Shown here piece after piece: positions 7,444 to 63,033 of a DNA stretch of 64,000 bases (the stretch's first letter is position 1; each line of letters opens with the position of its first letter). The notes beneath the pieces are model-generated. The model made no database searches. It was not told the origin of the DNA and saw only the letters and a program-made list of their open reading frames with translations. Source of the stretch: a virus; IMG/VR virus record IMGVR_UViG_3300012923_000008, positions 7,050 through 71,049 of that record; one strand, 5' to 3'. A program made the translations under genes and the position numbers.

Positions 7444-9621
7444 TTGACCGGTCTTTTCCGTACCCGGCAGCCGTTTCTCCAGACTAACGCTTGGCAAAAC
7501 CAGGCTCTTAATGCCTTACACTATAATACCTCTCAGCAGGGCTCGGTCGTTCCCCTTGTTTACGGTACTGTTCGGCAGCAAATTAATCTTCTTGACTTTC
7601 AGGACTACAAAGGTCCTGTGGGGGCAAAGGGTAAGACAGGTTCGTTGCCTATAACGGGTACTCAATCTCGCTCGGCCAAGGGTGGTAGTTCGAAGAGTGG
7701 TAAGAAATCTTCTCCCGATTATAGCCTTGACGTGATGTTCGGACTTTGTCAGGGACCTATTACTGGAATAGGGAATGTCTATACTTCGGCCGGGATCGCG
7801 AATTTTGGCTCTTTGCCACTGAACTTCTACTCCGGTGCTGATGGGCAGGCGGCCGATACAACGTTTGTCAGATTCGGTTCTATCGTGGGGTATTCTGGGA
7901 CGGCTACAGTTTCTGCGACTCCGTTGGATCTTGGTCCGAGTCCGGTTCTGCCGAACATTGCCGTAGAGATCATAGGGCTCGAGGTCGGAATTAATACTGG
8001 TTCTTTTACTTCTGATGCTAACCCGGCGAATGTCATTACAGATTTTCTCACTAACTCCCGCTACGGAGTGGGATTTCCCAGTGGAAATCTCTCTGATCTT
8101 ACAACTCTTACGGGTACTTCATTTGCTGAATACTGCCAAGCCACACCGCTATTAATCTCCACTTCGCTTGATGGACATCAGAAGGCCATCGAGTGGCTCG
8201 ATGCCATTGCTAAACTGTGCAACACGGCGATGTTTTTTGCGGGGAAATTGCTCTATTTTGTTCCTTTCGGTGATCTATCGCTCAATAACAACTCCGCCAC
8301 GTGGACACCGAATCTTGTTCCGGAATATTCGCTTACTGATTACCACTTCATTCCTTGGCGACAGCATGAACTTGGCCGGGAGCCGCAGCCCGGTGAAGAC
8401 GATCCGCTACTCGTAACCCGCACTAACTCGGCCGACGCTAATAATTGGAAAAGTATAGAATACACTGACCGGGACAATTTCTACAATTCAACTACCTTGA
8501 CCGTGGACGATCAGGGACTCATCGACGCGTATGGTTTGCGTATGGGGGACTCTATCCAGGGCCGTGCATTTTGTAGCGTCATTCCTGCCCAGGTCTCAGT
8601 ACAGTTAAATATTCAGCGTGATGCCTATATTCGCAACACCCCGTATAAATTACAAATTGGCTGGCAATTCGCCCGGCTGACGCCGATGGATATTATTACC
8701 CTCACTGGTCGGCATGGCGACCTTTATCTTAACGAACAACCTGTGAGGATTCTTTCTATCGAGGAGGACGATCAGGGGGGACTCACTATCGAGGCCGAAG
8801 AAATACAGCAGGGCGTATCGTTGCCGCCGGTTGTCCCTGGGCCCCCGCCGAACGTTATCGCCTATGGTGCTTCACCGTCGAATTATAGTGCTAACTTTTT
8901 AGTCAGGACCGCGGACCTTACAATAAATTCTCCATATCCAATATCCTCTGGTGCCGCTAAAGAGAATGCGTTTATAATGATGGTGGAGACCAGGGATGAT
9001 ATTTTAGGACCAGTAGCTCCGGTAGTGAGTAGTATTACCAGTATTCCGCCTCTTACTTGGCAGAAGAGGACCGATTTTTCGGGGACCACTCTGCCCGGCC
9101 CGGTCGGGTCTAATATGGAGATTTGGTGGGCTGATTGTAGTAGTCTGGCGTCAGGGACTCTTGTTACTCCTACGGTGCATTTCTCAGGGGTGGCTTATTT
9201 GCCCCAGTTTATCATGCAAGCTGTAGCCAATGTGGGGAACCCGGCTTCGCCGTGGGATACGAATGCTAGTCTACCACATAAGGTCTCTGGAAATTCTGTA
9301 CCACCTCAGATCTCAGGGGTTTCTACGACTAAATCTAATACTGTGACTTTCGTCTGGATGACCTCCCCGCATTTTATGACCAACGTGGGCACTAATGGCG
9401 GGATGACTGTCGGATCACCGCCATTTATCGTCAGTCCATTGTCAACCGTTATCGGGAGTAGCGTTCTTGAAGTTGATACATGGGCCAATTGTTACGTGGT
9501 GTTTAATTCTCCGCAGAGCTCCCTGCTTCTAAAGCCGTTTACGCCGGATGTGAATTCTGTTGTTGGACCTTATCCGACAGTGGGATATCTCATGATCGCT
9601 GACGCTATAGTCGGAGCCTAG
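7444..9621 (+). CDS. Central tail/host-specificity (megatron/J-like) protein, N-terminal half plus an extra C-terminal domain
   Basis: VPLVYG, FGLCQGPI, DANPA..I.DFLTNSRYG and VRILSIEED motifs. TTG start at 7444 after GAGGG. Confidence 0.85.
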   Translation: MTGLFRTRQPFLQTNAWQNQALNALHYNTSQQGSVVPLVYGTVRQQINLLDFQDYKGPVGAKGKTGSLPITGTQSRSAKGGSSKSGKKSSPDYSLDVMFGLCQGPITGIGNVYTSAGIANFGSLPLNFYSGADGQAADTTFVRFGSIVGYSGTATVSATPLDLGPSPVLPNIAVEIIGLEVGINTGSFTSDANPANVITDFLTNSRYGVGFPSGNLSDLTTLTGTSFAEYCQATPLLISTSLDGHQKAIEWLDAIAKLCNTAMFFAGKLLYFVPFGDLSLNNNSATWTPNLVPEYSLTDYHFIPWRQHELGREPQPGEDDPLLVTRTNSADANNWKSIEYTDRDNFYNSTTLTVDDQGLIDAYGLRMGDSIQGRAFCSVIPAQVSVQLNIQRDAYIRNTPYKLQIGWQFARLTPMDIITLTGRHGDLYLNEQPVRILSIEEDDQGGLTIEAEEIQQGVSLPPVVPGPPPNVIAYGASPSNYSANFLVRTADLTINSPYPISSGAAKENAFIMMVETRDDILGPVAPVVSSITSIPPLTWQKRTDFSGTTLPGPVGSNMEIWWADCSSLASGTLVTPTVHFSGVAYLPQFIMQAVANVGNPASPWDTNASLPHKVSGNSVPPQISGVSTTKSNTVTFVWMTSPHFMTNVGTNGGMTVGSPPFIVSPLSTVIGSSVLEVDTWANCYVVFNSPQSSLLLKPFTPDVNSVVGPYPTVGYLMIADAIVGA

Positions 9622-9624
9622 AGC

Positions 9625-10503
9625 GTGCCATTACCTGCGATAAGTCCTTCAGGAGTTTCCTCCGCGTTTCTCTATCCCACTCAGGTTAGCGGGGGTTCTG
9701 GGTTCACGGGTATTATTTCCACACCGCCGTCTTTCGTTAACCCACCGATTATTTTCGAACCGAATACTGACTTTACCGGGAATCAAATCAAAGTCGTTAT
9801 GATCGTCACTGGTGCTCCCCCGAATTGGGGCGGGGCACAGGTCTGGGCGAGTGCAGATGGAAGCACTTATGGTCAGATTGGTACAGTCTACCAGGGCGGT
9901 GTACAGGGAATCCTTACTGCCCTGTTCCCTTCTGGTTCTGACCCGGATACGGTGAATACAATCTCGGTTGATATTTCTCAGAGCGGGGGGCAGATTATCG
10001 CGGGAAGTACTACTGACGCCGATATGGGGATAACTCTCGCGTATGTGGGTGGGGAACTGGTTGGCTATTCAGCTAGTACTCTCACGAGTGTGAATCAGTA
10101 CAACTTGGGTACCTATCTGCGTCGCGGACTCTATGGGAGTACTATCGGGTCCCATGCTATCGGGTCTCGCTTCGGACTTGTAAATGGGAATATTTTCACA
10201 CAGATCTATCCCGCATCATGGATTGGTAGAACGGTTTATTTTAAGTTCTTAAGTTTCAATGCTGTCGGGGGGATGATACAGAGTTTAGCCTCGGCGGTCG
10301 CGTATCCGTATACGCTTACCGGGAATGGGGTGAGCCCGGTAGGGCCGAGCACGACCTGCCCGACTACTATTGTCCTTTTTGGCGGGGCTGCCGAAATCGA
10401 ATGGGGATCGCTTGATAGCGATTGTATTATCGACTGCGCTGACTGGGGGCACTTGACTGATTCGGTGAGTCCGTTTTGTATTGATATGGGAGTACTTGGC
10501 TAG
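9625..10503 (+). CDS. Central tail protein, C-terminal half
   Basis: PPIIFEP, WGGAQVWAS.DG, LRRGLYGS and YFKFLSFN motifs, which normally follow in the same polypeptide. GGAG RBS at 9613. Confidence 0.8.
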   Translation: MPLPAISPSGVSSAFLYPTQVSGGSGFTGIISTPPSFVNPPIIFEPNTDFTGNQIKVVMIVTGAPPNWGGAQVWASADGSTYGQIGTVYQGGVQGILTALFPSGSDPDTVNTISVDISQSGGQIIAGSTTDADMGITLAYVGGELVGYSASTLTSVNQYNLGTYLRRGLYGSTIGSHAIGSRFGLVNGNIFTQIYPASWIGRTVYFKFLSFNAVGGMIQSLASAVAYPYTLTGNGVSPVGPSTTCPTTIVLFGGAAEIEWGSLDSDCIIDCADWGHLTDSVSPFCIDMGVLG

Positions 10504-10970
10504 TGGCAACGCAACAGAGAGTGAAGAGGATACGGGGGACTGCGGGGCAGAATGCCGCTGCGACTTTGCCGGAGGGAAACTTCGTTGTAAAGACTCCTAT
10601 AGATGGTACGGTTTGGGTACATGATGGAAGTACTCCTGGTGGATTTCCTATCGGGGCTGCTGCTGGCGGGGCCTTTGCTCTTGATCCCGTTACTACCGGT
10701 GTACTTCATACTGTGGTCCTTTCTGCTCTTCAAACCTGTACGTATTGGACCTCGGCTACTGGCGGGGCGAAGACGGCAGTTATTCCCGGAGCGGCCTCTG
10801 TTAATAAAGGCTATCTCTGGATTGATAAAACGACCCTGAATAATGGCGATACACATAATATAGTCCCTAGTTCTGGTACTGTTGAATCTTTTACGACTCT
10901 CACGTTTAATGATTTTCGGGCTTCGATTAGTTTGATCTCGGACGGCGTAAGTAACTGGATGATCGTTTAG
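10503..10970 (+). CDS. Short tail-fibre-associated protein (MTD/hyaluronate-lyase N-terminal-like)
   Basis: RIRGTA...EG....VHDGSTPGGFP and ISLISDGVSNW. Confidence 0.6.
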   Translation: MATQQRVKRIRGTAGQNAAATLPEGNFVVKTPIDGTVWVHDGSTPGGFPIGAAAGGAFALDPVTTGVLHTVVLSALQTCTYWTSATGGAKTAVIPGAASVNKGYLWIDKTTLNNGDTHNIVPSSGTVESFTTLTFNDFRASISLISDGVSNWMIV

Positions 10971-12952: not shown

Positions 12953-13276
12953 ATGACTTCTACACCGATCACGTCAGTCAATCTTGTTACTGGAACTTCA
13001 GAGAATGTCACTATCGTCGATGAGAACGGGGTGGCGTTGCCGGATAGTTCAATAGCCTGGTCTGTGGTGGCCGGTACACTTACGTTCGGTACCTCGGGCA
13101 TTGCGCAGAATCTTATCATTACCCAAGATTCTGTCCATGGTGGTTTTAATTTCGCCGCGATGAGCGCCGGGGTGGGTACAATGCGGGCGACTCACGGGCC
13201 GAGTGGGAAGACCACCGATCTTCCGGTGACTCTTACTAATTCTGTCACTTCTATCTCGGCCGTGTCGGTGACATAA
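12953..13276 (+). CDS. Small Ig-like protein
   Basis: AGGAG RBS before the ATG at 12953; beta-rich, with an IAWSV motif. Confidence 0.55.
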   Translation: MTSTPITSVNLVTGTSENVTIVDENGVALPDSSIAWSVVAGTLTFGTSGIAQNLIITQDSVHGGFNFAAMSAGVGTMRATHGPSGKTTDLPVTLTNSVTSISAVSVT

Positions 13277-13285
13277 GAGAAAAAG

Positions 13286-13312
13286 AGAGGGGAGAAGTCT
13301 TTTCTCCCCTCT
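13286..13312. terminator. Hairpin terminator between convergent transcription units
   Basis: AGAGGGGAGAA/TTCTCCCCTCT 11-bp stem with an A-tract on its left side. Confidence 0.75.
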
Positions 13313-13349
13313 AAAAAATTTTACCTTAAGTACTATCAGGACTTCATTC

Positions 13350-14303
13350 TTATGCTTCTCCGGCGAATCCCCAGGGATCAGCTCCCGTCGTAGTTTGGAG
13401 GAGCCCGGCACCTACCTGGGTAAATGCATTCGGATGCGTCTGGTCATCTGTGGCGGATGTCCAGTCCCAAACGTAATTCGCGGGGTTATTTTGGAAGATT
13501 GTGTGACCACCGTAGAGGTAGATTTGTGGCTTAATGAGATTCCCAGATCCGTCGACGATTAAGTTACTCCCTGATGGTGGGTTTCTCACAGGTAGGTTTG
13601 TCGAGGGATCTACAAATGCGCCCTGTATCGCAGGGTCGGCAATGTTTACCGGGGCAGAATAGAAATAATATTCTGCCATGTTACCGACGTAGTAGGTTCC
13701 GCGTTGTCCGATAGTCCATCTAAATGTCTGGCCGAGATAGTTAGCTGTCACTAGGGGGACGTTAAATGGCCCGCTCCAGCTAATGGTGTGGAATCCGTTC
13801 ACCGCGACTTTGTCGATCAGCGCTGAGATTGTTCCTAATTGTGTGTTTGCCTTGACCCATAGAATGTGCCATCTACCATCGTATGGGATAGAGCCTAGGG
13901 AGCTCGCGGCGTGAAGTTCTCGATTGGACCGCCAGTCGTAAAGATCTACGTCTAAGAATGCAGTGTTTTTCCGGAGGTTACTACTGATTTGTATTACAAT
14001 CGAGGTATTACTTCCAGATCCCCCGGCAGTGTCTGTAACGAGTAGACCTTGGCTATTCGGATAGCCTGTAGCGTTGAATATTACGCTGAGGAATAGATCT
14101 GGGCTATCGGCGGGTAGGGATGCCCAGGACCCGGCGTTTCGAAGGAGTACTGATCCCGGGAAGTTTACTGCGAATTTCCCATCCGTCGGGGGCGGTGGCG
14201 GTGCCCAGGCGTGACGGGGTGACATGATCGCTCCCCCGGCGATTCCGACGCCTGTTGATTTCAGCAGGGCTCTACGCGTGATTACTGATGTTCTTTTTAG
14301 CAT
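13350..14303 (-). CDS. Tat-exported LamG/concanavalin-like protein
   Basis: GAAAGGA RBS then MLKRTSVITRRALLK...AWA twin-arginine signal; DGRWH motif and G.MAEYYF. Confidence 0.7.
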   Translation of the reverse strand: MLKRTSVITRRALLKSTGVGIAGGAIMSPRHAWAPPPPPTDGKFAVNFPGSVLLRNAGSWASLPADSPDLFLSVIFNATGYPNSQGLLVTDTAGGSGSNTSIVIQISSNLRKNTAFLDVDLYDWRSNRELHAASSLGSIPYDGRWHILWVKANTQLGTISALIDKVAVNGFHTISWSGPFNVPLVTANYLGQTFRWTIGQRGTYYVGNMAEYYFYSAPVNIADPAIQGAFVDPSTNLPVRNPPSGSNLIVDGSGNLIKPQIYLYGGHTIFQNNPANYVWDWTSATDDQTHPNAFTQVGAGLLQTTTGADPWGFAGEA

Positions 14304-14323
14304 GATGTTTTTCCTTTCTTCGT

Positions 14324-15292
14324 TCATGGCATGGAGCCCCAGGGGTCTATGATTGCAGTGGTTATGGAGGGGTAGCCCTGTGGCTCTAGAAATGAGGTTG
14401 CCCCGCCTTGATTGTAAAGGAATTGGGGCATTCCATCCCTTAGGCACAGTGCTGCATCGGTCAAGGTAGTACCGTATAGGGGATTTCTACACTTTGGGCC
14501 TAGGTTTTCGGGGAAGAAGTATGTCACTGGCGGCAGTCCCGGCGGGGCGTATGTTGTGATACGGGCGAACCCGGATCTTGTGTGTAGCTGCTCTATGGCA
14601 GCGTTGTCACCGATTTCGAAATGCCCGTAGACTTGTGAGAGAAATCCGTTGTAGAAGTCTGTTGGGAAGCCAACGAGGTTCACATCTGCACAGCCGTACC
14701 AGGGTGCGTTTTCGAATGGTACAGAAAAACTCTGCGCGCTCCCGTCTGACCCTGACCATGGTGCCGGTGCCCACGTCATAATATCCGGAACAGCGTTCCC
14801 GTCTATGTGGTAGGCGTTTGCGTACCATGTTTGGTTTGTGGGGTCGTAGTTATTCGTGTTGAACCGAAGCGCAATCATGTGGTAAAGATTGTCGTTTCTT
14901 ACCAGTTCGTTGGATGTCCAGTAAGCATAGTGTGAAGTGCCGCCTGTGCCGTCAGATACGAAGATCCGCAGGTGAATGCCGTCCTGCAGAGGCGGTCTAT
15001 TGACGTAGTTCTCGAAGGTCACGCGAAAGATTAGGAATCCCTGATATATTGGGCTCCAGGCTTCCATTATCGAAGCCCTTCCGTTAGTCGGGATCGCCTG
15101 GTCGGAATTCCAGAAGAAAGAGAATACTCCTTCTGGAGAATTGGTTATGTTGTCGGTGAAGCCGAGATTGTAGAAATACGAATTTCCGGGGCAATCTACC
15201 GCCCTGACTCCCTGCGATTGGCTCGGGGTGGATAGTAAGATACCACTTAGTGCGGTGGCTGCTAAGAGGGCTGACTTGAATAGGCTTTTCAT
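14324..15292 (-). CDS. Sec-exported LamG-like protein, paralog of 13350..14303
   Basis: Sec signal MKSLFKSALLAATALSGILLS; DNLYHM motif; C-terminal DPWG. Confidence 0.7.
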   Translation of the reverse strand: MKSLFKSALLAATALSGILLSTPSQSQGVRAVDCPGNSYFYNLGFTDNITNSPEGVFSFFWNSDQAIPTNGRASIMEAWSPIYQGFLIFRVTFENYVNRPPLQDGIHLRIFVSDGTGGTSHYAYWTSNELVRNDNLYHMIALRFNTNNYDPTNQTWYANAYHIDGNAVPDIMTWAPAPWSGSDGSAQSFSVPFENAPWYGCADVNLVGFPTDFYNGFLSQVYGHFEIGDNAAIEQLHTRSGFARITTYAPPGLPPVTYFFPENLGPKCRNPLYGTTLTDAALCLRDGMPQFLYNQGGATSFLEPQGYPSITTAIIDPWGSMP

Positions 15293-15304
15293 TTTGGTCC
15301 TCTG

Positions 15305-15898
15305 TTAGAAGGTTCGGGGTGTATTGTTTCGGGTCGTGTTGTTTTCTTGTAGCCATGTTTCTAGTTCTTGGAGCATGTGCTCGGGGGTGGAGGAGTTGTG
15401 AATCACCAGATCCACTTCGATCCGGAGATATTCTAACTCGCTTACGTGGTCGTCCACGAGTTCTAATCCGGGGCGTTCGATACGGATTATTTTCCCGCCG
15501 TGGTGTCGGATCACTTCTGCCTCATTTAAGAAGCGTAGGTCTTCGGCGACGATATTTTGATAAACGTCATTCGCTCTTCTGTGGTAAATTATTCTCCTTT
15601 CCCATTGCCCGATCCAGAGATCCCAGTCGACTAGTTCTCTTCCCCACTCTGTGCCGAGGGTTTTCTGTACATGGCGATTGGACCTCCCGTTAAAATACTC
15701 GCATTCTTCTTCTTTTCCGTCTCCCCAGACTAGACGGCTGATCTCATCCTCTGGCACTCCTTGTAGTCTTAGCATTACCGCGACTGATTCCTTAATCGGA
15801 TCTGCAAAGGCGAAGCGCCAGTAGCCGAGGCGCTGGTTTAGCTGTTTTGCCAGTTCGGTTTTACCACTTGTTTTTGGTCCACAGAGTCCGAGGATCAT
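15305..15898 (-). CDS. Deoxynucleoside monophosphate kinase
   Basis: GLCGPKTSGKT, FADPIK, LGTEWGR, DLRFLNE and HVSE motifs. Confidence 0.92.
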   Translation of the reverse strand: MILGLCGPKTSGKTELAKQLNQRLGYWRFAFADPIKESVAVMLRLQGVPEDEISRLVWGDGKEEECEYFNGRSNRHVQKTLGTEWGRELVDWDLWIGQWERRIIYHRRANDVYQNIVAEDLRFLNEAEVIRHHGGKIIRIERPGLELVDDHVSELEYLRIEVDLVIHNSSTPEHMLQELETWLQENNTTRNNTPRTF

Positions 15899-16176
15899 GA
15901 GATTTAATACCTCTTATGTCGATCGGAAGAGTCGCCACTGCCGAATAGTTCTCTTTTTGCTTTGCTCGCTGAATACCAGAAAAATCTATAACCAAGGTAC
16001 GTATCCGCTAGGCCTGTGATGGGGATGAATAAGTATAGATAGTTCACAGTCTATTCTCCTTTCTGCGTCCGCCGTTCCATCCGCGGGATCGATAGGTGCC
16101 GTTGGTGATCTTTATCTCTTTCTGTCTCGTTCGCCATCTCTGAGTTCGTTTCACGTGGTCCTCTTTGCTCTTTTCG

Positions 16177-16569
16177 TTATTCTTCGCTTTTAGCCAAGTC
16201 ACGTCGAGACTCCCTTCTTCCTGGTGTTTTAGTGGCGTGTTTTGACCATTGAGTTATGGTCTTAAAGGGGCCTTTGCCACAGGTGCAGAGGATTCCTTTC
16301 TCGGGGTTGTCGTGTACGATAAGGTGCTTTGGTAATCCTTTGGTTTGTGCTTCGTCCCAGAGCTTTCGCCATTGGCCTGAGATTAAGTCGGAGTAGTTTG
16401 TGATGAAGGTGTCAAAGGCTAAACTATGTCCTTTCTCCTCTCTCGTCTTCGTCGGGGAGTTCGTCCTCTTCTGACCAGTCCCCGGCGGATTGCCAGATGT
16501 TCCAATCGCGGCAGCTTCTCTGTCTTGTGCGGTTCGGGTTTGAGTCTCCATAGCGTCTTGTATCTCCAT
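16177..16569 (-). CDS. Hypothetical protein with a Cys/His zinc-finger-like segment (start uncertain)
   Basis: CTCGKGPF...WSKH. It overlaps the upstream gene by 146 nt, so the true start is probably later. Confidence 0.4.
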   Translation of the reverse strand: MEIQDAMETQTRTAQDREAAAIGTSGNPPGTGQKRTNSPTKTREEKGHSLAFDTFITNYSDLISGQWRKLWDEAQTKGLPKHLIVHDNPEKGILCTCGKGPFKTITQWSKHATKTPGRRESRRDLAKSEE

Positions 16570-16729
16570 GTTTCCATCTCCAAGCGGTTTTTAGTGAACA
16601 GCCGATTAGGTCGGCGGCTCGGGCTAGTGAATCACCACGTTCCAGAGCTTTTAGGACTGTCTGGCGTTGCGTCTCTGTGTATATAGCGGCGTTTCCGCTG
16701 GGTCCGTGGAAAAGAACTGAACTCGGCAT
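16424..16729 (-). CDS. Helix-turn-helix protein
   Basis: GDSLARAADLIGCSLKTAWRWK. Confidence 0.75.
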   Translation of the reverse strand: MPSSVLFHGPSGNAAIYTETQRQTVLKALERGDSLARAADLIGCSLKTAWRWKHGDTRRYGDSNPNRTRQRSCRDWNIWQSAGDWSEEDELPDEDERGERT

Positions 16730-17916
16730 TAGACTACCTCTTGTCTTGGTTGTGGTACATATGTCCCGGGCTTCGTGCCCCGGCGAATGAGATCGCTCCT
16801 TTCCATTGCCTCGATGATGGGTTTGATCTTGTCACTTGTGGTTCGTTCTTGGATGAAGTTCCAAAGGATAGCTTCGGGTAGTGGCTGTCGTTTTTCGCGG
16901 ACTACCGAGGCGTATTGGGAATAGAGAAACTGATAGGACTCACGGATTAGTTGTTCGTCGGACCTTTGCCTCATGGCTTTGAATACATCGGGCATAAATT
17001 CCTCTGCAGAGAGAAGCCACTTCTTGGCTCGAAGGAAATCGCCAAGAGTGACTGTTAGACTTTGGTGATAACTTACGGCGGAGATCATGGAGAGTTTTAA
17101 AACGTGTGGGCCTCGACGACCGCGATAGTGCGTTAGTCTACTATGGTCTGGCACTGGTGGGAGTTTCTGCCCGAACCATTCGTTCAGAGCCTTCATGGCG
17201 TCGGGTTCCCAGAGGCATTCGCCAGAGAGGGAGAAGATTCTGATTAGATCTTTTTGCAGACTATCTCTTGTAAGTTTATTGGCCTTCTTCTTAAAGACGT
17301 CCCTGTTCGGGTCATGCGTCTCTGAACCGTAGATAAAGATCAGGCGACTGGTAAAGCCGCCGCCCCAGGCGACTTCGGGGAAGATAGTACCAATGTAGTC
17401 TGGTGTCGCCCCGCCGAGAATATTCACCGTTGGGCGTTCGATGTGGACAGACGAGGTGCTACTTCGCGGGGCGGTGAACTGGTCTTTGTTGTCATATAGG
17501 TCTGTCAGGGTCGCGAAGAAGTCTTCGTCACTATTGGCGAAAAGGACACCGAGCTCGGCACTAGGGACTGACATAGCGGAGTAGATCACGGCTCCGCTGC
17601 CATTAGTGTAGTCGCGGGTAGATTTCTGAAGAGTGTCGAGAAAGCTTCTCCTTGATGGGTTATCCGGGCCGACGTGGAGCTGTGGGACCTCGATCCAGTA
17701 CTTTCTGGCTTCGTTTATCATTAGGGTCTTCCCACTCGCGGGGAATCCGCAGAGGATGGTGAACTGGTTTGGAAAGAGCATTCCTCGATCTGTCTCGGTC
17801 CAGACCCGACGTTCTAGTGCACCTGCTATGATCGTGATCCCGGTCCAGAGTCTAAATGATTCCGGACTCTGTATGTCTTCCGTGTCTTGGACGAATGTTT
17901 CAATCCAATCTGGCAC
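16729..17916 (-). CDS. DUF3987/YfjI-like P-loop ATPase (putative replicative helicase)
   Basis: SPESFRLW, PNQFTILCGFPASGKT Walker A, LTDLYD, GGATPD and GGGFTSRLIF. Confidence 0.8.
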   Translation of the reverse strand: MPDWIETFVQDTEDIQSPESFRLWTGITIIAGALERRVWTETDRGMLFPNQFTILCGFPASGKTLMINEARKYWIEVPQLHVGPDNPSRRSFLDTLQKSTRDYTNGSGAVIYSAMSVPSAELGVLFANSDEDFFATLTDLYDNKDQFTAPRSSTSSVHIERPTVNILGGATPDYIGTIFPEVAWGGGFTSRLIFIYGSETHDPNRDVFKKKANKLTRDSLQKDLIRIFSLSGECLWEPDAMKALNEWFGQKLPPVPDHSRLTHYRGRRGPHVLKLSMISAVSYHQSLTVTLGDFLRAKKWLLSAEEFMPDVFKAMRQRSDEQLIRESYQFLYSQYASVVREKRQPLPEAILWNFIQERTTSDKIKPIIEAMERSDLIRRGTKPGTYVPQPRQEVV

Positions 17917-18110
17917 AAGAAAGGGGTCCTTCTCTTAGGTAGGAGTATTTAGTCTTTCTATTTCGTCGCTTACACTACGGTTTATGTAGTCGATATACAG
18001 TCGGGTAAATACCATCTTCATCTCTTCTGGTTTGATTTTTAGTACTCTTGAATGGTATAGGCTTTTCCCTTCGCCGCAGACTATTACGATGCTGATTGAT
18101 TTTAGTTCTT

Positions 18111-18476
18111 TCATGAGAGTCTTTCCTTCCAAAGTTTGAGCATTTCTTCCCGGCGCTGTATGAGTATGTTACGCTCCGCTAGCGTTGTGATGTGTTTACA
18201 GTTGGAGCAATGTCCTAGACTATCTTTTAGAGTTCGACTGATTTGTAGTCCATTGATCCTTTCGGTTTCGCCGGGGACCATGAAACCGCCGCTGTTTGAA
18301 CATGTGAAACATGGACTGCAACTGTCCATAGTACGATCAGCGGCGTCGAATAGTCTTTGTAAGGCTTTATCTTCTCTCTTTATTTCTTCACTCCCACGTT
18401 CTTCACTTTCGAACTCGAAACAACGGCCTTTTCGTAGACACTCGTGTTGAGTAGTACAGATTTCACAAAAAGCCAT
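18111..18476 (-). CDS. Cys-rich hypothetical protein
   Basis: Several CxxC motifs; tightly coupled to its neighbours. Confidence 0.55.
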   Translation of the reverse strand: MAFCEICTTQHECLRKGRCFEFESEERGSEEIKREDKALQRLFDAADRTMDSCSPCFTCSNSGGFMVPGETERINGLQISRTLKDSLGHCSNCKHITTLAERNILIQRREEMLKLWKERLS

Positions 18477-18692
18477 TTATCGCTTTGCTCCCGGTTTGTC
18501 GAGGGTTTCCCATCGCTGTGGATAGCAATCAATAGAATTAATGGGCCATCCGGCTTCCTGAAGTTCTTGGGAGAATTTCTCGATGGCATCCATTACCTCT
18601 TCTAATGGAATGTATTCGGGGTCTTTTTGCCTAATGTGGACGTTTATACCGGCGGTGTGAATGTCGGCGCACATTTGCCACAGGGTTGTCAT
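18477..18692 (-). CDS. Small hypothetical protein whose C-terminus copies that of PolA
   Basis: Ends LDKPGAKR; PolA ends LDKPGMKR. Confidence 0.6.
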   Translation of the reverse strand: MTTLWQMCADIHTAGINVHIRQKDPEYIPLEEVMDAIEKFSQELQEAGWPINSIDCYPQRWETLDKPGAKR

Positions 18693-20179
18693 CTCTTCAT
18701 TCCCGGCTTGTCGAGTCCTCGGGGGTTGATTTCGATCTGCTTTCCGTTCTCGTACTTGTATCGCATTCCTTTGTTCCAGCCGGTTTTGGCTTCGGTGGGA
18801 ACAGAGAAGGATCTAGATTTGGTAAGAGGGATTTCAACTCTGAGTAGTTCTTGAGCAATACGCAGGACCTCGTCTTCATCGTCATCCTCGCGGAATTGGA
18901 AGTACCACGCGTCGTGTTCTTGAGTGAGGAGCTGTATTCGTTCTTTCATCTTAGTCCACATTCGATAACCACCGAGGTTTATATCGTCGGCGTTGGCACT
19001 GGCTTGCATAAATGCCGCGGCTTGACGGATAGTTTCTTCGGAGTCGGGCCGGTCAAAGAAGTCTCTGCGGCGGCCGAAAATATTGACTAGATACTGTTTT
19101 GTTTGGATTTGATGCGCGAGCCAGCGGTGATATTTGGGAATTGCAGGGAAGGCACGGAAGTACCTTTCTTGAAAGTCAATCACCGTTTGGACAGGGAGGT
19201 TGTTGTAAATTGATATTGTCGGGGGTTTTCCCAGAATGTTTGTGGCGTGGCCGACCTTTTTTGCTACTTGTCGGTAAGTGTCTTTGGCGATTAGGAGTGG
19301 ACCTTCTGCCACTCGGCGGTCTTTTTTAAGATCCCCGGTCCAAGGAAGTTCGTTTGGCCAAGCCATACGGGCTATTGTGGTGTGTCCATCGCTGGTCTCC
19401 AGGGCGTCTAGATAGGTCCAGTCATCGAAGAGGATACCACATAGAAGTCCCACGTGTCGGCTCTCGGCTTGTTCTTTGTCTATCCCGCAGAGCTTGTAGC
19501 CGGGGTCCGCGATGAACATCCGGCGAAGCTTTTCGTCTACGTTTTGGAGATTCCCCCCGGTGCCGGTGAAAGACTTCGAGCTACTCCAGCGACCCTCGTT
19601 TGTCCCGGCGATATTGAAGGAGGTCCGTATTCGCCAGTCGGGGTCGATTTCCATCTCGAGTTTTTCCCGCTGTTTTGAAAGGCTACGACAGGCGAGAATT
19701 GCTGCGGCGATGATCCTCGCCCGGGGGAATCTGGTCCGGATCTTCTCCAGGGTCTCTTCATCCATTGGACGTTTAGTCTCGCCTCCGAAGTGAGTCTCTA
19801 TAGGATGGATTCTCATTACGTTGTAAAAGAGGTTTTGGATTTGCTGAGAGGAATTGAAAAAATACGGGGCTTGATCGAACCCTGTGGTTTGACCGGAGGC
19901 GGCGTGTACTAATTCGGCGAGGAAAGAGTTAATCCCCTTGAGTCGCTCTTTTATGTCTATTATTCCTCTGTCCTGTTCCATTGGGTCTATTAAGAATCCC
20001 CTTAGCATCATCTCCATCGCCGGACCTTGCATGGCGCGGGAGAGAGAATAGACTGGATCAGCACCGGGGAGAGAGAGAAGTTTGTCGAGGATTCCGTAGG
20101 TTCTACATACGTCATAGCCGTTGTAGATTTGGGGGTCGGAGGAGGGGGCGTTTAGTTCGTGGGTGGCGACTAGGGGCAT
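18689..20179 (-). CDS. polA: Family A DNA polymerase, polymerase subunit (starts at Exo III)
   Basis: YNGYD (Exo III), GRWSS, GNLQN, motif A IDKEQAESR, motif B RQVAKK and motif C QEHDA. Confidence 0.92.
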   Translation of the reverse strand: MPLVATHELNAPSSDPQIYNGYDVCRTYGILDKLLSLPGADPVYSLSRAMQGPAMEMMLRGFLIDPMEQDRGIIDIKERLKGINSFLAELVHAASGQTTGFDQAPYFFNSSQQIQNLFYNVMRIHPIETHFGGETKRPMDEETLEKIRTRFPRARIIAAAILACRSLSKQREKLEMEIDPDWRIRTSFNIAGTNEGRWSSSKSFTGTGGNLQNVDEKLRRMFIADPGYKLCGIDKEQAESRHVGLLCGILFDDWTYLDALETSDGHTTIARMAWPNELPWTGDLKKDRRVAEGPLLIAKDTYRQVAKKVGHATNILGKPPTISIYNNLPVQTVIDFQERYFRAFPAIPKYHRWLAHQIQTKQYLVNIFGRRRDFFDRPDSEETIRQAAAFMQASANADDINLGGYRMWTKMKERIQLLTQEHDAWYFQFREDDDEDEVLRIAQELLRVEIPLTKSRSFSVPTEAKTGWNKGMRYKYENGKQIEINPRGLDKPGMKR

Positions 20180-20520
20180 GAGTTGTTCTCTTTTATGGTT
20201 CCCCAATGGTTGTTTCTATTTGGGTCTGGCTCGGATAGAAATCTGTGATTACCACCGATGTCGGGATCGTGTAGCTTTATCATACTACACTTATATAGTG
20301 TCATAATGACTTTTGGTCCCGTTAGTTTTATCTCGAAACTTTCAGGTAACGGCCATTGTCCGATAGAGATAGCCCGGGCTACGATTGTTATTTTTGTTCG
20401 AGAATCGCCTGGGTCATTATGTGTTATTGTCATTTCGAACTCGGCGGAGACGTCTTGAAGAATACCGATTCGTTCGCCGTTGGAGTTAATTGTGCCTTCG
20501 GGGAAAAGGAGCATTGACAC
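20170..20520 (-). CDS. Hypothetical protein
   Basis: ORF tiles between dcd and polA on the coding strand. Confidence 0.55.
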   Translation of the reverse strand: MSMLLFPEGTINSNGERIGILQDVSAEFEMTITHNDPGDSRTKITIVARAISIGQWPLPESFEIKLTGPKVIMTLYKCSMIKLHDPDIGGNHRFLSEPDPNRNNHWGTIKENNSCP

Positions 20521-20523
20521 CTT

Positions 20524-20979
20524 TTAATTTCCTTTTTCGAATATTGCGTCCTGACCAGGCTTCTGGTCTTGGAACTTCCCTTCATAGGGTTGTAGAGTGG
20601 GTTCTTCGAGACGGAAAAAGATCACCTGTACTATTCCGGTCCCTTTGTAGATCGCGAGTGGTTTCTCCCCGCCGTGCATATTGATCTCGAGTCTCAGTAC
20701 TCCGCGCCAGCCAGGCTCCACGACGGTCGTGGCGTGTTCCACATGGAGGCGTGCCCAGGTAGACTTGGAGGTCAGGATTCCTAATACGTCGTCGGGCATG
20801 TTGAGACGTTCTATGGTATCGGCTCTAATGGATCGTCCTGGCCAGAGGGTTATGTCTTCGGCTAGGCGCAGGTCGTACCCGGCAGGACCTAGACCGTAGG
20901 TCACTCCGTTGAAACGAGTGCGGGGGGCGCAAGGGGAGATGAGACCGAGTCGTTGTATGGTCTGCGCGGGGAGGATCAT
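20524..20979 (-). CDS. dcd: dCTP deaminase (dUTPase superfamily)
   Basis: GLGPAGYDLRL, KSTWAR, EPGWRGVLRLEI and YEGKFQDQ. Confidence 0.88.
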   Translation of the reverse strand: MILPAQTIQRLGLISPCAPRTRFNGVTYGLGPAGYDLRLAEDITLWPGRSIRADTIERLNMPDDVLGILTSKSTWARLHVEHATTVVEPGWRGVLRLEINMHGGEKPLAIYKGTGIVQVIFFRLEEPTLQPYEGKFQDQKPGQDAIFEKGN

Positions 20980-21362
20980 TGGTGATTTTCCTCGCATAGA
21001 ATATGTCCACAGACCTTGCAGGTGGGGTATTTTTCTATCTCATGTTCTAAGGGAACCGGCAAGTGTTTTCCTTTCACCCGCTTCGCACGCATCTCGAGCA
21101 TTAGTATCATATGTCGGGCATGGCCGATGCAGATCTCTGTCTCGGCACAAGGGATTTGGTTATTGAGATAAAGCAAGCGATCTATTAGAGCCCGGAGGAC
21201 TTCTTGGCAGTTCGTTCCAGGATGTGGAGATCCTTCATTTCCGGGGTATCTTTCTCCGATTCGTTTCATGAAGAAAAGATATTGACGAAATGGAGCCGGA
21301 TCTTTTGGCACAACGTCGTAAACTTCTAGTACGTACGAGTGTCCGGGGGTTATATACTTCAT
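20976..21362 (-). CDS. Hypothetical phage protein
   Basis: PGHSY, GTNCQEVLRALIDRL.YL and a terminal CxxC; coupled to dcd. Confidence 0.65.
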   Translation of the reverse strand: MKYITPGHSYVLEVYDVVPKDPAPFRQYLFFMKRIGERYPGNEGSPHPGTNCQEVLRALIDRLLYLNNQIPCAETEICIGHARHMILMLEMRAKRVKGKHLPVPLEHEIEKYPTCKVCGHILCEENHQ

Positions 21363-21560
21363 TTTAGTGGTATTCCTGTTCCTTTAACACTGTTCACAAG
21401 CCATTCACCAAAGGCGAGAAGATCCTCCGGGCTGAATAGAATTTCCGGGCCGCCTTGGAGTGATAAAGAATAACCCAATGGTCCTACGACCGAGTGTGAA
21501 CAGCAAAATACTGTAATAAAGGCACCGTGTTTTGTTGAGAACGATGTTGTCGAGTTCATC

Positions 21561-21761
21561 TCAGTCATCCCGTTTGAGTGATTCACCATTTCCTGTGAGA
21601 GCGTACTGAGCAAACTTTTCCCTCTGTTCATCTGATATTGAACGCTGTAATCGAGCTACAATCGAAAGTAAAGCATATCTCGAAACCAGTCCCTGATTAG
21701 TAAGGGAATATAACAGGAGGGCCAAATCTATGACCGTGACGTCGTCCATGTGTATTTGCAT
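21561..21761 (-). CDS. Small hypothetical protein ending ESLKRDD
   Basis: Same last 7 residues as 21952..23142. Confidence 0.55.
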   Translation of the reverse strand: MQIHMDDVTVIDLALLLYSLTNQGLVSRYALLSIVARLQRSISDEQREKFAQYALTGNGESLKRDD

Positions 21762-21767
21762 CTTTAG

Positions 21768-21950
21768 TTATCTTTCCCTCTTGAGAGAGAAGAGTCTTCG
21801 GTGATCGAGATAGATATTACCCATTAATAAAAGTAGTACTGGAACTATTTCTCGTGGATGGGAATCACAAGTCCATAATAATAAAAGAAGAGTGAATCCA
21901 GTACCCAAACCGTAGAGATATGGACGCATGTTGGGATTACGATTGCTCAT
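21768..21950 (-). CDS. Small membrane protein ending SLKRER
   Basis: Two hydrophobic segments. The ATG at 21950 directly follows the upstream stop. Confidence 0.55.
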   Translation of the reverse strand: MSNRNPNMRPYLYGLGTGFTLLLLLWTCDSHPREIVPVLLLLMGNIYLDHRRLFSLKRER

Positions 21951-21951
21951 T

Positions 21952-23142: not shown

Positions 23143-23607
23143 AGGATTACATTCCTTCTAGGGCACATTTTACTGATGTGATTGTGCTTGTATGATATAT
23201 TCCCTGTTTTTCCCATAATTCCCGTAGCTCTTTTGCCCGGAGAAGTATCTTGTCGTTTGGATCATCCTGGTGTTTGTATTCGTATCGTGCCGCTGAGATC
23301 ATTCCGAATTGGTCGTGTTTGTGTTCGAGATCAAATCCTTTGTAGATCATGTGATTTTCCTTTCCCTTTATATTTTAAACCTGCCAAGTGAACTTCGCTG
23401 TAGTTGTACCGTTTCTAGATCCATCACGCGCCGGTGAAGAATCTCTAGTGTGTTCATGTTGCTACGTAATGCCCCGGCGAGTTGATCTATACTTTTCGTA
23501 TGGTATGCAATTGATACGTTTATTTCATTAATTAGGTCTATTAAGATTTTTTCACTGTTTTGATTTCTCTTGCGAAAGAATAGCATTGTCTTTTCCTTTC
23601 TCCTTTT

Positions 23608-23682
23608 GCCACCGAATTATCCGCCGCTCGGTGGCCACACGACTGCCACACTATATCCGCAGGAGGAGGAACGGTATAGTGT
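23608..23682 (-). ncRNA. Two-hairpin RNA element with a UCCUCCUCCU (anti-SD) loop
   Basis: Stems 23648-60/23671-82 and 23608-16/23627-35. The G-U pairs form only on the minus strand. Confidence 0.45.
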
Positions 23683-23718
23683 TGGATGGGGAGAAGAGGT
23701 AGTGGGGTAGAGCTTTCT

Positions 23719-24243: not shown

Positions 24244-24307
24244 AGTGTGTTGTCCTTCGTCAAAAAGGAAGAAGAGTGATTAGAATAGAGGATTTTAATT
24301 CTCTGTT

Positions 24308-27126: not shown

Positions 27127-27138
27127 AGGGAAAGACTC

Positions 27139-30263: not shown

Positions 30264-30433
30264 CTCTTCGTCTCCAGAGGAGAAAGGGTGGAAAAGAGAG
30301 GCAGTCTATATTCGGGTTGTGTGTACAGACTGCCTCTCTAACTAACTTGGTCTCCGTCTCATAAAGGTATGTTGTTTGTTTTCTCTTTAGGGGGCTTTGT
30401 AGTTTGTTTCCCCCCGCATGGGCGCCTCCATGG

Positions 30434-31509: not shown

Positions 31510-31577
31510 GGGTCGTGGGCCGGTTAGAGAGTAAGGGGTTACTATTTAACCCCTTTCCCTTCTCCTAGTGTAACTTT

Positions 31578-46589: not shown

Positions 46590-46903
46590 GTGAACTAACT
46601 GTAGTCGTTGGCCGCGGAAAGACTGGAGTACTGACCTTCGATGAAGTAACACCACCCCTCGATGGGGCCGTTGCCACTGACAACGCCGCCGTTGCTACGA
46701 TTTCCCTTGCCCCCGATCATGTCACCTGGGTTGCCCAGGGCGTATCTCTTGGCGATGCGAACATCAGCTACACCGGCACCTCTGTTCTACCCGATGTCGG
46801 CCCGGCGGTGGTTCCCAATATGATCGTCCACGTCGTTGCAGCGCCATTAGCAGAAACGGGAGACTTCAACCCCGCCGCCGCGACAGACGTACCTGGACCA
46901 TAA
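46586..46903 (+). CDS. Ig-like small protein
   Basis: TDNAAVATI...GVSLGDANI (Big_2-like); ends ETGDFNP...VPGP. Confidence 0.55.
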   Translation: MSELTVVVGRGKTGVLTFDEVTPPLDGAVATDNAAVATISLAPDHVTWVAQGVSLGDANISYTGTSVLPDVGPAVVPNMIVHVVAAPLAETGDFNPAAATDVPGP

Positions 46904-61426: not shown

Positions 61427-61840
61427 ATGCTTACGATAGAAATCGCCCATTATAAAGGATTAAATTACACTCCTGCGGTTTGTCTTGCTACCAAGGTTCA
61501 AGCAGAGCTTATCGCCAGTGGTAAATCTGAGCCCCTATTGTCCGTCGGATGGGATGACAATGCGATTGTGGCCTCTATTAATGAAAAAGAGGTTGGTCTC
61601 ATCACTTGGAGATATATTGAGTGGATTAGAACTGTGAATATACATCTGGGATGGGTCGACCCAGAATATCGTCGGAATGGGATTTATTCACAGATGTGGA
61701 GAGAATTAGTGCAGAAGGCTCGAGATTTAGAAGCGAAATGTATAACGGGAACAACGCATATGGATAACTACGCGATGCGTAAAGTTGCCAGGTCTATGGG
61801 CCGTGTCGAAATTTCTATAAATCTAAGTTATCGGTTATAA
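61427..61840 (+). CDS. GNAT acetyltransferase
   Basis: VDPEYRRNGI motif A and N..MR....MG. Confidence 0.82.
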   Translation: MLTIEIAHYKGLNYTPAVCLATKVQAELIASGKSEPLLSVGWDDNAIVASINEKEVGLITWRYIEWIRTVNIHLGWVDPEYRRNGIYSQMWRELVQKARDLEAKCITGTTHMDNYAMRKVARSMGRVEISINLSYRL

Positions 61841-61844: not shown

Positions 61845-62300
61845 ATGCTCTCGATAGAGATCAGCCCATCCCCCCGGTTCGGTGAAAAGATCTATGGTCT
61901 CTCTAATAGGATTCGTTCTAAATGGAACGCGAGGCTCGAAGAGACAGCGCACCTCTTGAAGGAAAAGGTCCTTCAGAATCTCGATGGCAAGATCCTTCAC
62001 AAGCGCAGTGGTCAGCTCTATGAGAGTATTCATGAAGAGACCTACTCTTCGGGGTATGACTTCGTTGCCTTCGTTGGCCCTATCCCGGCCACGCCGAAAG
62101 CCTATGCCCTAGAATTAGGAGGCAAAGGTGACTACATTATCCCTGTCGGTCCGAAGGGATTCCTGGCTTCTAAGTCTGGTGATTTTTTCTCTAAGCGGGA
62201 CGTTATTCATCCACCGAGTAAAGAGTACGCCTATCTCCGTACGGCGATGGAAGAAGTCGAGGCTACTATTCCTAGCGAGTTCTCGTTGGATCCAGAATGA
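61845..62300 (+). CDS. Neck/tail-completion protein (HK97 gp10-like)
   Basis: LHKRSGQL..SI, YALE.G and YLR.AM. Confidence 0.7.
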   Translation: MLSIEISPSPRFGEKIYGLSNRIRSKWNARLEETAHLLKEKVLQNLDGKILHKRSGQLYESIHEETYSSGYDFVAFVGPIPATPKAYALELGGKGDYIIPVGPKGFLASKSGDFFSKRDVIHPPSKEYAYLRTAMEEVEATIPSEFSLDPE

Positions 62301-62458
62301 GTTACTTTTTGGTAATCGAGGAAGAGGATGGATTTTATTGGATGGGGCGAGATAAGATGCCCATTGGGCCTTATAGAACACGGCAGGCCGCGGTAGATGG
62401 ATTTATAAAAGAAGATCATGTATCACAACAGCTAATTGATGACAGTGACACGGAATGA
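62297..62458 (+). CDS. 53-aa hypothetical protein (not in the ORF track), paralog of 27891..28076
   Basis: ATGA overlaps at both ends; DGFYWMGRD..IGPY.T...A. Confidence 0.6.
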   Translation: MSYFLVIEEEDGFYWMGRDKMPIGPYRTRQAAVDGFIKEDHVSQQLIDDSDTE

Positions 62459-62949
62459 TTACGCCACAGATACCATTTCCACCGGGGCCGAGGACTGCCA
62501 TCCGGGCAGGGATTATGACCTTGGTACAGGGAATGACCTTCGGAACCCCTATCAATGGGGCTTTGACTTGGCGAACCACGAGTCCTCGTCTCAAGCTCTG
62601 GGCAGACGTTCCGAGCCAAGAACAACCAGCTGCCTTTGTCACCAAACACCGCGAGCGTCGTGAAATTGCCAGAATCCCTATCCAGGCCGGACTTGAAGTT
62701 CGCTACCTTCATTTGTCGATTTATTGCTACTCTCGTACTGATGATCCTGTTAGTGTTGGCAGCGATGATCTCGACATTATGATGGAAGCCTTCGATGCAG
62801 CCTTTACCCCTGACAAGATGGGAACCCTATTATTAACACTCGGTGGCTTAGCTTACTACGCCCGCATGGAAGGTCAGATCTTCCAGGATCCGGGCGACAT
62901 AGACAATCAGGCAATGATGATCGTACCAGTAGTGGTGGAGATGCCATGA
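62455..62949 (+). CDS. Tail terminator protein
   Basis: RLKLW.DV...QPA, TLGGL and EG.I..DPGD.D.Q; precedes the tail tube gene. Confidence 0.72.
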   Translation: MITPQIPFPPGPRTAIRAGIMTLVQGMTFGTPINGALTWRTTSPRLKLWADVPSQEQPAAFVTKHRERREIARIPIQAGLEVRYLHLSIYCYSRTDDPVSVGSDDLDIMMEAFDAAFTPDKMGTLLLTLGGLAYYARMEGQIFQDPGDIDNQAMMIVPVVVEMP

Positions 62950-62958
62950 GAAGGACTC

Positions 62959-63033
62959 ATGTGCCTTCTCACGATCAGAGAGTCTTACTGGTATGGCAAG
63001 ATCAAGAGCTTCCTTCTAGTGGAGATGCCGTGA
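62959..63033 (+). CDS. 24-aa mini-ORF ending VEMP
   Basis: AAGGA RBS; MCLLTIRESYWYGKIKSFLLVEMP; TGATG-coupled to the next gene. Confidence 0.45.
   Translation: MCLLTIRESYWYGKIKSFLLVEMP

Follow-up and report, generated by a model that had tools for sequence, protein, structure and literature searches.

Phages gain orphan open reading frames (ORFans) and carry mosaic joints between their genes, and the debate over how this happens runs between illegitimate and short-homology recombination. We take up one small part of that debate here: how do small accessory open reading frames (ORFs) come to end, or to begin, with the same few residues as the gene next door? The stretch in question (the window: 64,000 nt, bases 7050-71049 of the one 71,049-bp contig of IMG/VR record IMGVR_UViG_3300012923_000008, a metagenome assembly) comes from a tailed phage, and we call the repeated terminal peptides junction echoes. 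Conserved boundary or linker sequences between phage modules are reportedly part of the modular theory of Susskind and Botstein and are said to have been described by Clark et al. in 2001 for HK620, and Rhs C-terminal displacement was reportedly described by Jackson et al. in 2009. Closest to our case is mycobacteriophage Island3, whose gp68 is an inserted ORFan, absent from its close relative Brujita, with 18 C-terminal residues that resemble the upstream gp67; its authors invoke recombination between ~50-bp sequences and regard insertion versus deletion as undecidable (Pope et al. 2011, PMC3029335). Two further precedents are the effector-immunity arrays of type VI secretion systems (T6SS; Kirchberger et al. 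2017, PMC5361080) and the relaxed homologous recombination by Rad52-like/RecT recombinases that accompanies mosaicism in temperate coliphages (De Paepe et al. 2014, PMC3945230).

In this phage, conserved core genes have tips that recur on small neighbors. Ownership of the tip could be tested in three cases, those of pol1 and pol2 (the two halves of a split DNA polymerase) and of a 126-aa gene, and in all three, the core gene, with a tip conserved across relatives, owns the peptide, and the small neighbor, otherwise dissimilar, carries an allelic copy of it. We think that the real echoes are probably scars of recombination with diverged relatives, homologous on one side and illegitimate on the other. 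As with Island3 gp67/gp68, the ORFs here are missing from a close relative (ORF60, ORF62, and ORF66 from one contig; ORF71 with ORF121 from another), an inserted ORF (ORF62) is without homologues, and the terminal residues repeat those of the adjacent gene, with nothing else in common. Unlike Island3, which offers one locus, 18 residues, and ~50 bp with nucleotide similarity, the window has several loci that involve N- as well as C-termini, and the copies are shorter (7-15 codons), more diverged, matched to other alleles, and in one place, stacked as three tails. That is, a single-locus precedent is published, and what is new here is the several loci at both termini, evidence for an allelic origin of the relic, and the three-tail array at a split-polymerase hot spot; a limited search of the phage literature, main texts only, found no description of multilocus terminal echoes.

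The three stacked tails lie behind pol1, where a 3.1-kb metagenome contig (L015) with ~82% DNA identity to the window provides a comparison. The features are as follows.

21952-23142, minus strand: pol1, with the UDG-like and exonuclease parts, N-terminal half of the split family-A DNA polymerase (Pfam UDG; phrog_17 positions 552-779)
21768-21950, minus strand: ORF60, small accessory ORF ending in FSLKRER (tail codons 21771-21788), absent from L015
21561-21749, minus strand: ORF62, ORFan ending in TGNGESLKRDD (tail codons 21564-21593), absent from L015
21359-21559, minus strand: ORF66, third ORF of a 588-nt block without counterpart in L015 (our gene caller used a later start, 21478)
21947-21956, minus strand: 10-nt direct repeat ACTAAAATGA, a stop plus start junction, upstream copy at the block edge
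21359-21368, minus strand: the same 10-nt repeat, downstream copy at the junction of ORF66 and ORF128

The pol1 protein of the window ends in YGSESLKRDD (tail codons 21955-21975), and an ending of the form K[R/K/A]D[D/E] closes pol1 in 12 of 14 relatives, whose polymerases are 33-64% identical to those of the window (88% in L015). ORF60, directly downstream, has a tail with 14 nt identical to the pol1 tail. Among 5.8 billion proteins, the only homologues of ORF62 are itself and its counterpart on a near-identical 71,104-bp contig, and its GNGESLKRDD matches a longer type of pol1 end, GxGESLKRDD, that is found as GKGESLKRDD in two relatives at 64% identity (L021 and L022); pol1 of the window and of L015 has GSESLKRDD, one codon shorter. 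The last 18 codons of ORF62 are 61% identical to the last 18 of pol1 in L021/L022 (tblastx, E 0.005-0.007), and at the nucleotide level it has one match of 24 nt (87.5% identity) and one of 31 nt (80.6%). Read in this way, the tail of ORF62 appears to be a relic of a GxGESLKRDD-type pol1 end. In L015, ESLKRDD is followed by TAA, a single G, and an ATG that runs straight into the homologue of ORF128, so the window has 588 nt (ORF60, ORF62, and ORF66) more at this place, and ACTAAAATGA occurs in just two exact copies in the window, one at each edge of this block. L015 is also without ORF67 and has an additional 92-aa ORF elsewhere. The tails carry translation signals as well: AAGAGGGA, a Shine-Dalgarno (SD) sequence, stands 8-13 nt upstream of the next ATG both after pol1 and after ORF60.

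As in other phages with split family-A DNA polymerases, the exonuclease and polymerase domains are on separate ORFs, and this split is kept in every relative that we read (L001-L014 from IMG/VR and L021-L023), with zero to about six unrelated ORFs between the halves, varying by relative. The gap between the polymerase halves is a cassette hot spot. In the window and in L015, this gap includes a dCTP-deaminase/dUTPase-like gene (20524-20979), which in L021 and L022 follows pol2.

At the other end of this gap, the peptide is LDKPG[M/A]KR.

18689-20179, minus strand: pol2, C-terminal polymerase-domain half (Pfam DNA_pol_A; phrog_17 positions 900-1242)
18477-18692, minus strand: ORF71, small accessory ORF ending in ETLDKPGAKR (tail codons 18480-18503)
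18111-18476, minus strand: ORF121, an independent whole-ORF cassette without an echo (a contig of run X2 has 18 nt in place of 18115-18478)

The resident pol2 ends in NPRGLDKPGMKR (tail codons 18692-18715). Across the last 16 residues of 51 pol2 homologues, the window's included, GL is present in 50, GLDK in 31, and LDKPG in 16; in those 16, the next residue is A in 12, V in 2, S in 1, and M in 1, the last being the window's own. One homologue (P0009) ends exactly in LDKPGAKR. Judged from this alignment, ORF71 seems to carry the common allelic form of the pol2 tail, and the resident form looks to be the rare one. The nucleotide match of ORF71 is 15 nt at 93%, and CCGGGA stands ~10 nt upstream of a start in both LDKPG copies. 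A pattern for LDKPGxKR followed by a stop found zero contigs in IMG/VR. Could ORF71, ORF60, and ORF62 be frameshift or read-through extensions that regenerate the tail? This seems unlikely, as no slippery heptamer was seen by eye in the last codons and the ORFs are absent from close relatives.

The third case is N-terminal.

37474-37704, minus strand: ORF76, accessory ORF starting MPRATAQ (37684-37704)
37097-37477, minus strand: conserved 126-aa gene starting MTRATAQIVI, owner of the N-terminal peptide

The 126-aa family has 12 representatives in a library clustered at 50%, with a conserved N-terminus of the form RATAQI[V/T]I.LDPETGE. RATAQ is N-terminal in 4 of the 11 representatives read, one of which starts MPRATAQ and one MTRATAQ; the former (P0060) is identical at its N-terminus to the start of ORF76. 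The comparison suggests that the MPRATAQ of ORF76 is an allelic form of its neighbor's conserved start.

Several other junctions carry candidate echoes.

46206-46589, plus strand: 127-aa gene between terminase and portal, ending in ERGDFNPQRSVPV
46586-46903, plus strand: 105-aa ORF, ending in ETGDFNPAAATDVPGP
61427-61840, plus strand: GNAT acetyltransferase starting MLTIEI, a borderline echo
61845-62300, plus strand: 151-aa ORF starting MLSIEI
62935-62949, plus strand: junction repeat GTGGAGATGCCATGA, first copy, comprising the tail VEMP, an SD, and an ATGA start/stop overlap
63019-63033, plus strand: junction repeat GTGGAGATGCCGTGA, second copy, closing a 24-codon mini-ORF directly before the ATG at 63033
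13350-14303 and 14324-15292, minus strand: two adjacent, apparently secreted ~320-aa genes (317 and 322 aa), ending in ADPWGFAGEA and IDPWGSMP

In the first pair, the shared GDFNP differs synonymously in four of five codons, and the 127-aa gene has two homologues, with overall identities of 80% and 89%, that have exactly the same tail. For the second pair, searches with the GNAT protein gave distant matches only, and tblastn of the 151-aa ORF gave no match. VEMP is better described as a DNA repeat, GTGGAGATGCC[A/G]TGA, with copies that are 14/15 nt identical, lie 4 nt from gene boundaries in both cases, and flank 84 nt with the mini-ORF. The DPWG pair (absent from an earlier note on this DNA but as strong as the best cases in it) has 13/15 nt identical over the motif, Tat-type and Sec-type signal peptides by eye, and no family match in Pfam and PHROGs scans; it may be either an echo or remote tandem paralogy. 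Could residual homology of very old tandem paralogues, then, explain some pairs (GDFNP, DPWG, perhaps ML[T/S]IEI)? The partners are of similar length (127 and 105 aa for GDFNP; 317 and 322 aa for DPWG, where each partner has an apparent signal peptide), the motifs lie at differing distances from the end, and a distant relative, G003, does have two true tandem paralogues whose tails are identical (z 27.8). However, nothing is similar outside the motif (z -0.88, 0.52, and -0.29), and the DPWG DNA is too alike for a pair otherwise diverged beyond recognition, so that we regard this explanation as very unlikely.

How much of all this is more than chance? We scored terminal similarity for all gene pairs, comparing neighbors (at most two genes apart, ~245 pairs) with the remaining far pairs (n=7260), in which the same SD, stop, and start constraints operate and which are, thus, a fair control. 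Genes were called by our own heuristic (a dynamic program on codon bias and ribosome-binding sites), which gives 123-124 genes on the 71,049-bp genome and sometimes gives wrong starts (ORF66, for example, was called as 39 aa). The top four C-terminal local scores overall belong to neighbor pairs—LDKPG[A/M]KR (37), ESLKRDD (35), DPWG (35), and GDFNP (33)—and none of the 7260 far pairs reaches any of them; when gene order was permuted, four neighbor pairs with a score of at least 27 arose in 0 of 5000 permutations (mean 0.196). At N-termini, the anchored identity of M[P/T]RATAQ (5/7) is as high in no far pair, that of ML[T/S]IEI (4/7) is equaled by 2 of 7260, and two such neighbor pairs turned up in 31 of 5000 permutations. 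SLKRER against ESLKRDD (4/8, anchored) is equaled by nine far pairs and has in addition its 14-nt exact DNA match.

Other candidates fare less well. MSNS/MSNS is equaled by 57 far pairs (~2 neighbor pairs expected by chance), GVSS/GTSS by 100 (~3 expected), and DPE/DTE by 670 (~23 expected), and GVS/GVS is three residues long, with a first copy that is nonterminal, since its 725-aa gene continues for another ~270 residues. All of the peptides quoted in the earlier note are in the window where it placed them, and of the ten or so echoes that it listed, five are beyond chance (ESLKRDD/SLKRER/ESLKRDD, LDKPG[M/A]KR, M[P/T]RATAQ, GDFNP, and the VEMP DNA repeat), ML[T/S]IEI is borderline, and the last four named are at chance level. 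Its proposed comparison of adjacent with shuffled pairs, then, separates a core set that exceeds the controls from MSNS, GVSS/GTSS, and DPE/DTE, which do not, and its description of the phenomenon as genome-wide and systematic was too strong: an echo is present at ~5-6 of ~120 junctions and in 2 of 8 observed indel units. Chance together with shared SD/stop/start constraints suffices for the four weak cases, and in anchored DNA windows, SD and stop signals do make many far pairs match just as well. The far-pair and permutation counts refute this explanation for the core set, and as an account of the echoes in general, we give it next to no weight.

The signal is chiefly one of peptides. Stop-anchored 18-nt DNA windows with at least 14/18 matches occur in 4 of 221 near and 9 of 7282 far pairs (p=4e-4), and start-anchored windows occur in 5 of 219 and 26 of 7162 (p=0.002), a modest excess because SD, stop, and start signals yield many far-pair matches. 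Local direct DNA repeats of at least 11 nt within 1.2 kb number 41, with 16.8 expected from Markov-1 shuffles, and most are away from gene ends. Beyond the echo, the partners have no detectable similarity (shuffle-test z -1.35 to 1.84), except for ORF60 against pol1 (z 2.75; 5 of 300 shuffles equal or better), and all-against-all blastp found no echo pair at E<=0.5. Most echo partners have no match in Pfam and PHROGs.

The DNA beneath the shared peptides has diverged, and the question is when. By hand count, the 31 codons of the five best echoes include 14 silent differences, 3 replacements, and 14 identical codons; the silent excess is partly built in because echoes were found by peptide identity. 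What matters more is that orthologous pol1 tails differ silently as much as the echo copies do. The window and L015 differ at 4 nt in the pol1 tail, all silent, and the window and L021 differ in 3 of 7 codons, the same number by which echo copy 1 differs from copy 3. These results bear directly on a second explanation, in-situ duplication of the junction, in which an insertion copies 20-30 bp of the resident gene end (by target-site duplication or a slipped template switch) and the copies diverge thereafter with the peptide under selection. The tail-ORF-tail geometry is what a target duplication would give, and near-exact junction repeats do exist (14 nt exact at SLKRE, 14/15 nt at VEMP, and the 10-nt ACTAAAATGA around the 588-nt block). 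Against it, the older copies are closer to other alleles than to the resident (A versus M in LDKPGxKR is a three-base codon change, and GxG versus GS is a one-codon length difference); ~45% of echo codons have silent changes with 3/31 replacements, so that a duplication would need long purifying selection on ORFan tails; and no transposase, inverted repeats, or fixed repeat length was seen, the repeats being 10-30 nt and mostly diverged. We consider in-situ duplication unlikely. Transposon target-site duplication in particular was rejected on the variable repeat lengths, the diverged copies, and the lack of a transposase among the proteins scanned (which are part of the ORFs only).

Among the points of the earlier note, differences that are mainly silent (14 against 3 replacements in 31 codons, partly a tautology), a diverged homologous end (the copies match other phages' alleles of the neighbor's tip in LDKPGAKR, GxGESLKRDD, and MPRATAQ), and preservation of the ribosome-binding site (the tail-coding DNA includes the SD for the next start) are all borne out. 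Its other suggestion, a simple 12-27-bp target duplication, leaves unexplained why the copy resembles other alleles over the resident gene. For the two candidate catalysts that it named, RecT and a Cas4-like nuclease, the genome encodes a RecT-like annealase and an exonuclease.

24308-25063, minus strand: RecT-like single-strand annealing protein (phrog_561, E 3e-38), a candidate recombinase
25524-26555, minus strand: PD-(D/E)XK exonuclease with a weak Cas4-like match (Pfam PDDEXK_1; phrog_1218, phrog_1706)

How, then, might one-sided recombination with a diverged relative leave an echo? At a minority of sites, a cassette would arrive in such an event, with a homologous crossover within pol1, pol2, or the 126-aa gene (the conserved core genes) on one side and an illegitimate join on the other. 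The latter would fall within the end of the resident copy of the same gene, 7-15 codons in. The incoming DNA would supply a complete new gene end together with a foreign ORF, and the old end, 20-45 nt, would be left behind in frame on that foreign ORF. One might call this homology-facilitated illegitimate recombination or “terminal displacement.” Such joins might survive because the retained 20-45 nt double as SD/start region for the gene that follows, and recombinants keeping the piece would keep downstream translation. The silent differences would then predate the joining rather than follow a duplication, the copies having been, in separate phages, alleles of one essential gene that diverged while purifying selection acted on it. 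The three tails stacked after pol1 would reflect repeated events at one site, with the most distal tail in the GxGESLKRDD form common to L021 and L022, which we infer to be ancestral; for the N-terminal echo, the geometry would be the mirror image. Later, ordinary homologous recombination among close relatives would move whole blocks at stop/start junctions. The RecT-like protein and the exonuclease could assist because Rad52-like phage recombinases tolerate divergence (PMC3945230).

The likenesses to the described systems are partial ones. With T6SS arrays (PMC5361080), this scheme shares a homologous anchor on one side with a nonhomologous join on the other, and an older piece that is pushed downstream and retained, so that repeats build an array. 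Relatives conserve the genes that serve as anchors here (pol1, pol2, and the 126-aa gene), and the distal relics have the GxGESLKRDD form and the majority A form. T6SS and, reportedly, Rhs systems displace whole functional modules (toxin tips and immunity genes) on bacterial chromosomes, whereas here it would be a 20-45-nt gene end on a small foreign ORF of a phage, with no sign of a conflict function. As in PMC3945230, a RecT-like annealase and an exonuclease are encoded and exchange between diverged relatives would leave traces at fragment borders; unlike the homology-driven exchange described there, ours would involve echo copies that are just 76-87% identical over 24-33 nt. Like boundary sequences, the echoes are short similar sequences exactly at gene boundaries, but boundary sequences are common to many phages at the same junction, and each echo is locus specific, within one genome, and single copy in relatives. 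A conserved boundary sequence was rejected on these grounds: there is no echo after pol1 or pol2 in L001-L014 or L021-L023, and the ESLKRDD-plus-stop coding pattern occurs once in each of two IMG/VR contigs.

Close relatives do have empty sites. In contigs of relatives from two soil runs, various units are skipped: ORF71 with ORF121, ORF121 alone (18 nt instead), ORF114, ORF67, ORF63, and ORF86, with one relative's contig skipping 18117-18688 (ORF71 and ORF121). The indel joints are within a few bases of stop/start codons, and the small ORFs are precise whole-ORF indel cassettes in this lineage. In window 13000-32999, a diverged strain in the same run (contigs less than 90% alike, depth ~5 versus ~9) differs mainly by whole-ORF cassettes, and a run from a second study has 100%-identical short contigs plus a variant without ORF121. 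Contigs of run X1 cover 19975-22974 without differences, and X1 may be the source sample. Assembly chimerism was rejected, the echo copies being too diverged and too short to act as assembler repeats. The idea in the earlier note that echo-adjacent ORFs are accessory holds, since they are missing as precise cassettes from L015 and from the relatives' contigs. Its forecast of empty sites at the repeats came out in part: relatives without the ORFs exist, and the breakpoints are away from the repeats, which is part of what it had said would speak against it. Because the breakpoints fall outside the echo copies, the echoes are not the substrates of the observed polymorphisms; they would be older scars within blocks that are now shuffled by ordinary recombination.

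Several observations weigh against recombination scars as the explanation, and we set them out together. The indels observed break at stop/start junctions, with 200-365 nt between the breakpoint and the downstream echo copy, and do not run from echo to echo. Searches of proteins, IMG/VR patterns, and genome contigs yielded no donor genome and no intermediate, and we infer the illegitimate join and its direction. All of the relics are short (7-15 codons), and random joins should give some longer ones; selection for the SD/start region would account for this. Each relic matches a known allele without replacement, which requires either a recent origin or selection on the relic itself. In the ORF62 copy, the SD is degraded (AAA CGG) with the peptide unchanged, and this fits selection at the peptide level no less than an allelic origin. 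Unrelated early proteins that are not neighbors share acidic C-terminal tails, so that docking tails are plausible in this phage. GDFNP, ML[T/S]IEI, and VEMP are assigned by analogy to the three of five to six real echoes in which ownership was tested, and GDFNP and DPWG could be remnants of old tandem paralogy. The source is a metagenome assembly, for which the X1 contigs may be support from the same sample, and the gene model is our own heuristic.

Some of these points would suit functional tail mimicry, in which the tip docks the small protein to the partner of the polymerase halves or competes for that partner, as a decoy, an adaptor, or a regulator. In pol1 and pol2, the tail is much more strongly conserved than the remaining C-terminal region and is, thus, important in the polymerase; ORF62 retains its peptide despite two silent changes that weaken the SD; and, in this phage group, acidic C-terminal tails recur on those unrelated proteins without similarity of the protein bodies. 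On the other side, the closest relatives can do without the echo-bearing ORFs, the relatives read have no such echo after the polymerase halves and no second ESLKRDD copy on a contig, and a docking protein need not be encoded directly beside the owner gene, as a scar would be expected to be. A predicted complex of pol2 with ORF62 had a median score under the mark in a run without controls, and we count it neither for nor against binding. Mimicry strikes us as quite unlikely. A bolder version would keep the scars and make the relic tips other than inert, with captured ORFans that inherit the C-terminal tail of a polymerase half, or the start of the 126-aa protein, plugged at once into docking sites of the replisome, or even with RecT and the exonuclease carrying out a semidirected capture of cassettes, integron-like without an integrase; we offer this as a decidedly doubtful speculation. 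If it were true, terminal displacement would be a route by which phages obtain new proteins that regulate their own replication machinery or act as decoys for it.

The acidic tails are separate from the junction echoes. In the window, they end the products of 26552-26923 and 28303-28668 (minus strand) with SVADLLTSEE and SVADILAGDNSE, and homologues with similar tails exist in L021 and L022. G003 has three L.L[D/E]DLGL proteins (38803-39048, 41947-42261, and 42502-42756), and G002 has three with tails of the ELDLSDLDD type (29889-30116, 31272-31511, and 35766-36035). They resemble docking tails of the kind seen in the tip of single-stranded DNA-binding protein (SSB) or in clamp-binding proteins.

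What would the scars be good for? If we read them correctly, echoes keep the end of one allele of a core gene beside the complete end of another, and they suggest that one way for phages to gain genes is homologous recombination with diverged relatives that is one-sided. Such events would cluster at the termini of essential genes, in this phage around pol1 and pol2. Their signature (an ORFan with an allelic tip of its conserved neighbor) is easily screened across phage genomes and could date and orient insertions. It also carries a warning for annotation: identical terminal peptides in neighboring genes need not imply a common function.

As to the phage itself, Pfam and PHROGs identify portal, terminase, and the split family-A DNA polymerase together with a DUF3987 primase-like protein, a dNMP kinase, and a dCTP-deaminase-like protein; the window has long codirectional gene blocks and no tRNA genes. 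The public runs that contain it carry soil metagenome labels. Relatives are few. A megablast of 10 kb against the GenBank phage collection gave zero matches and so no close relative there, tblastn of pol2 against that collection gave relatives at 34% identity or less only, and single-protein queries of IMG/VR gave relatives at 49% or less only (none for the 539-aa ATPase as the query); an alignment query added L021-L023. The complete distant relatives G002, G003, and G004 have only 8 of 123 genes in common with this genome and are, for that reason, uninformative on the other echo pairs.

A few features remain. An ORF of ~2700 aa (plus strand) runs from ~5 kb upstream of the window through window position 3070. 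A 386-aa protein (44647-45807, plus strand) matches only the C-terminal part of large-terminase profiles, with its residues 2-121 corresponding to phrog_7579 positions 115-237 of 239, and the terminase may be split or atypical. Small proteins at 27891-28076 (minus strand) and 62297-62458 (plus strand), 34 kb apart, are homologous (blastp E 6e-4), and one of them has a weak DUF6316/GYF-like match. In the early region, an AAA_5/CbbQ-type ATPase (34129-35748, minus strand) adjoins a CobT-like VWA protein (32197-33981, minus strand), a MoxR/VWA-like pair that is unusual in a phage replication module. The longest local direct repeat, 17 nt exact (GAAAGCCGAAGCCCTTT), occurs at 35425-35441 and 35830-35846, 405 nt apart, with one copy within the ATPase gene and the other 38 nt off a gene boundary.

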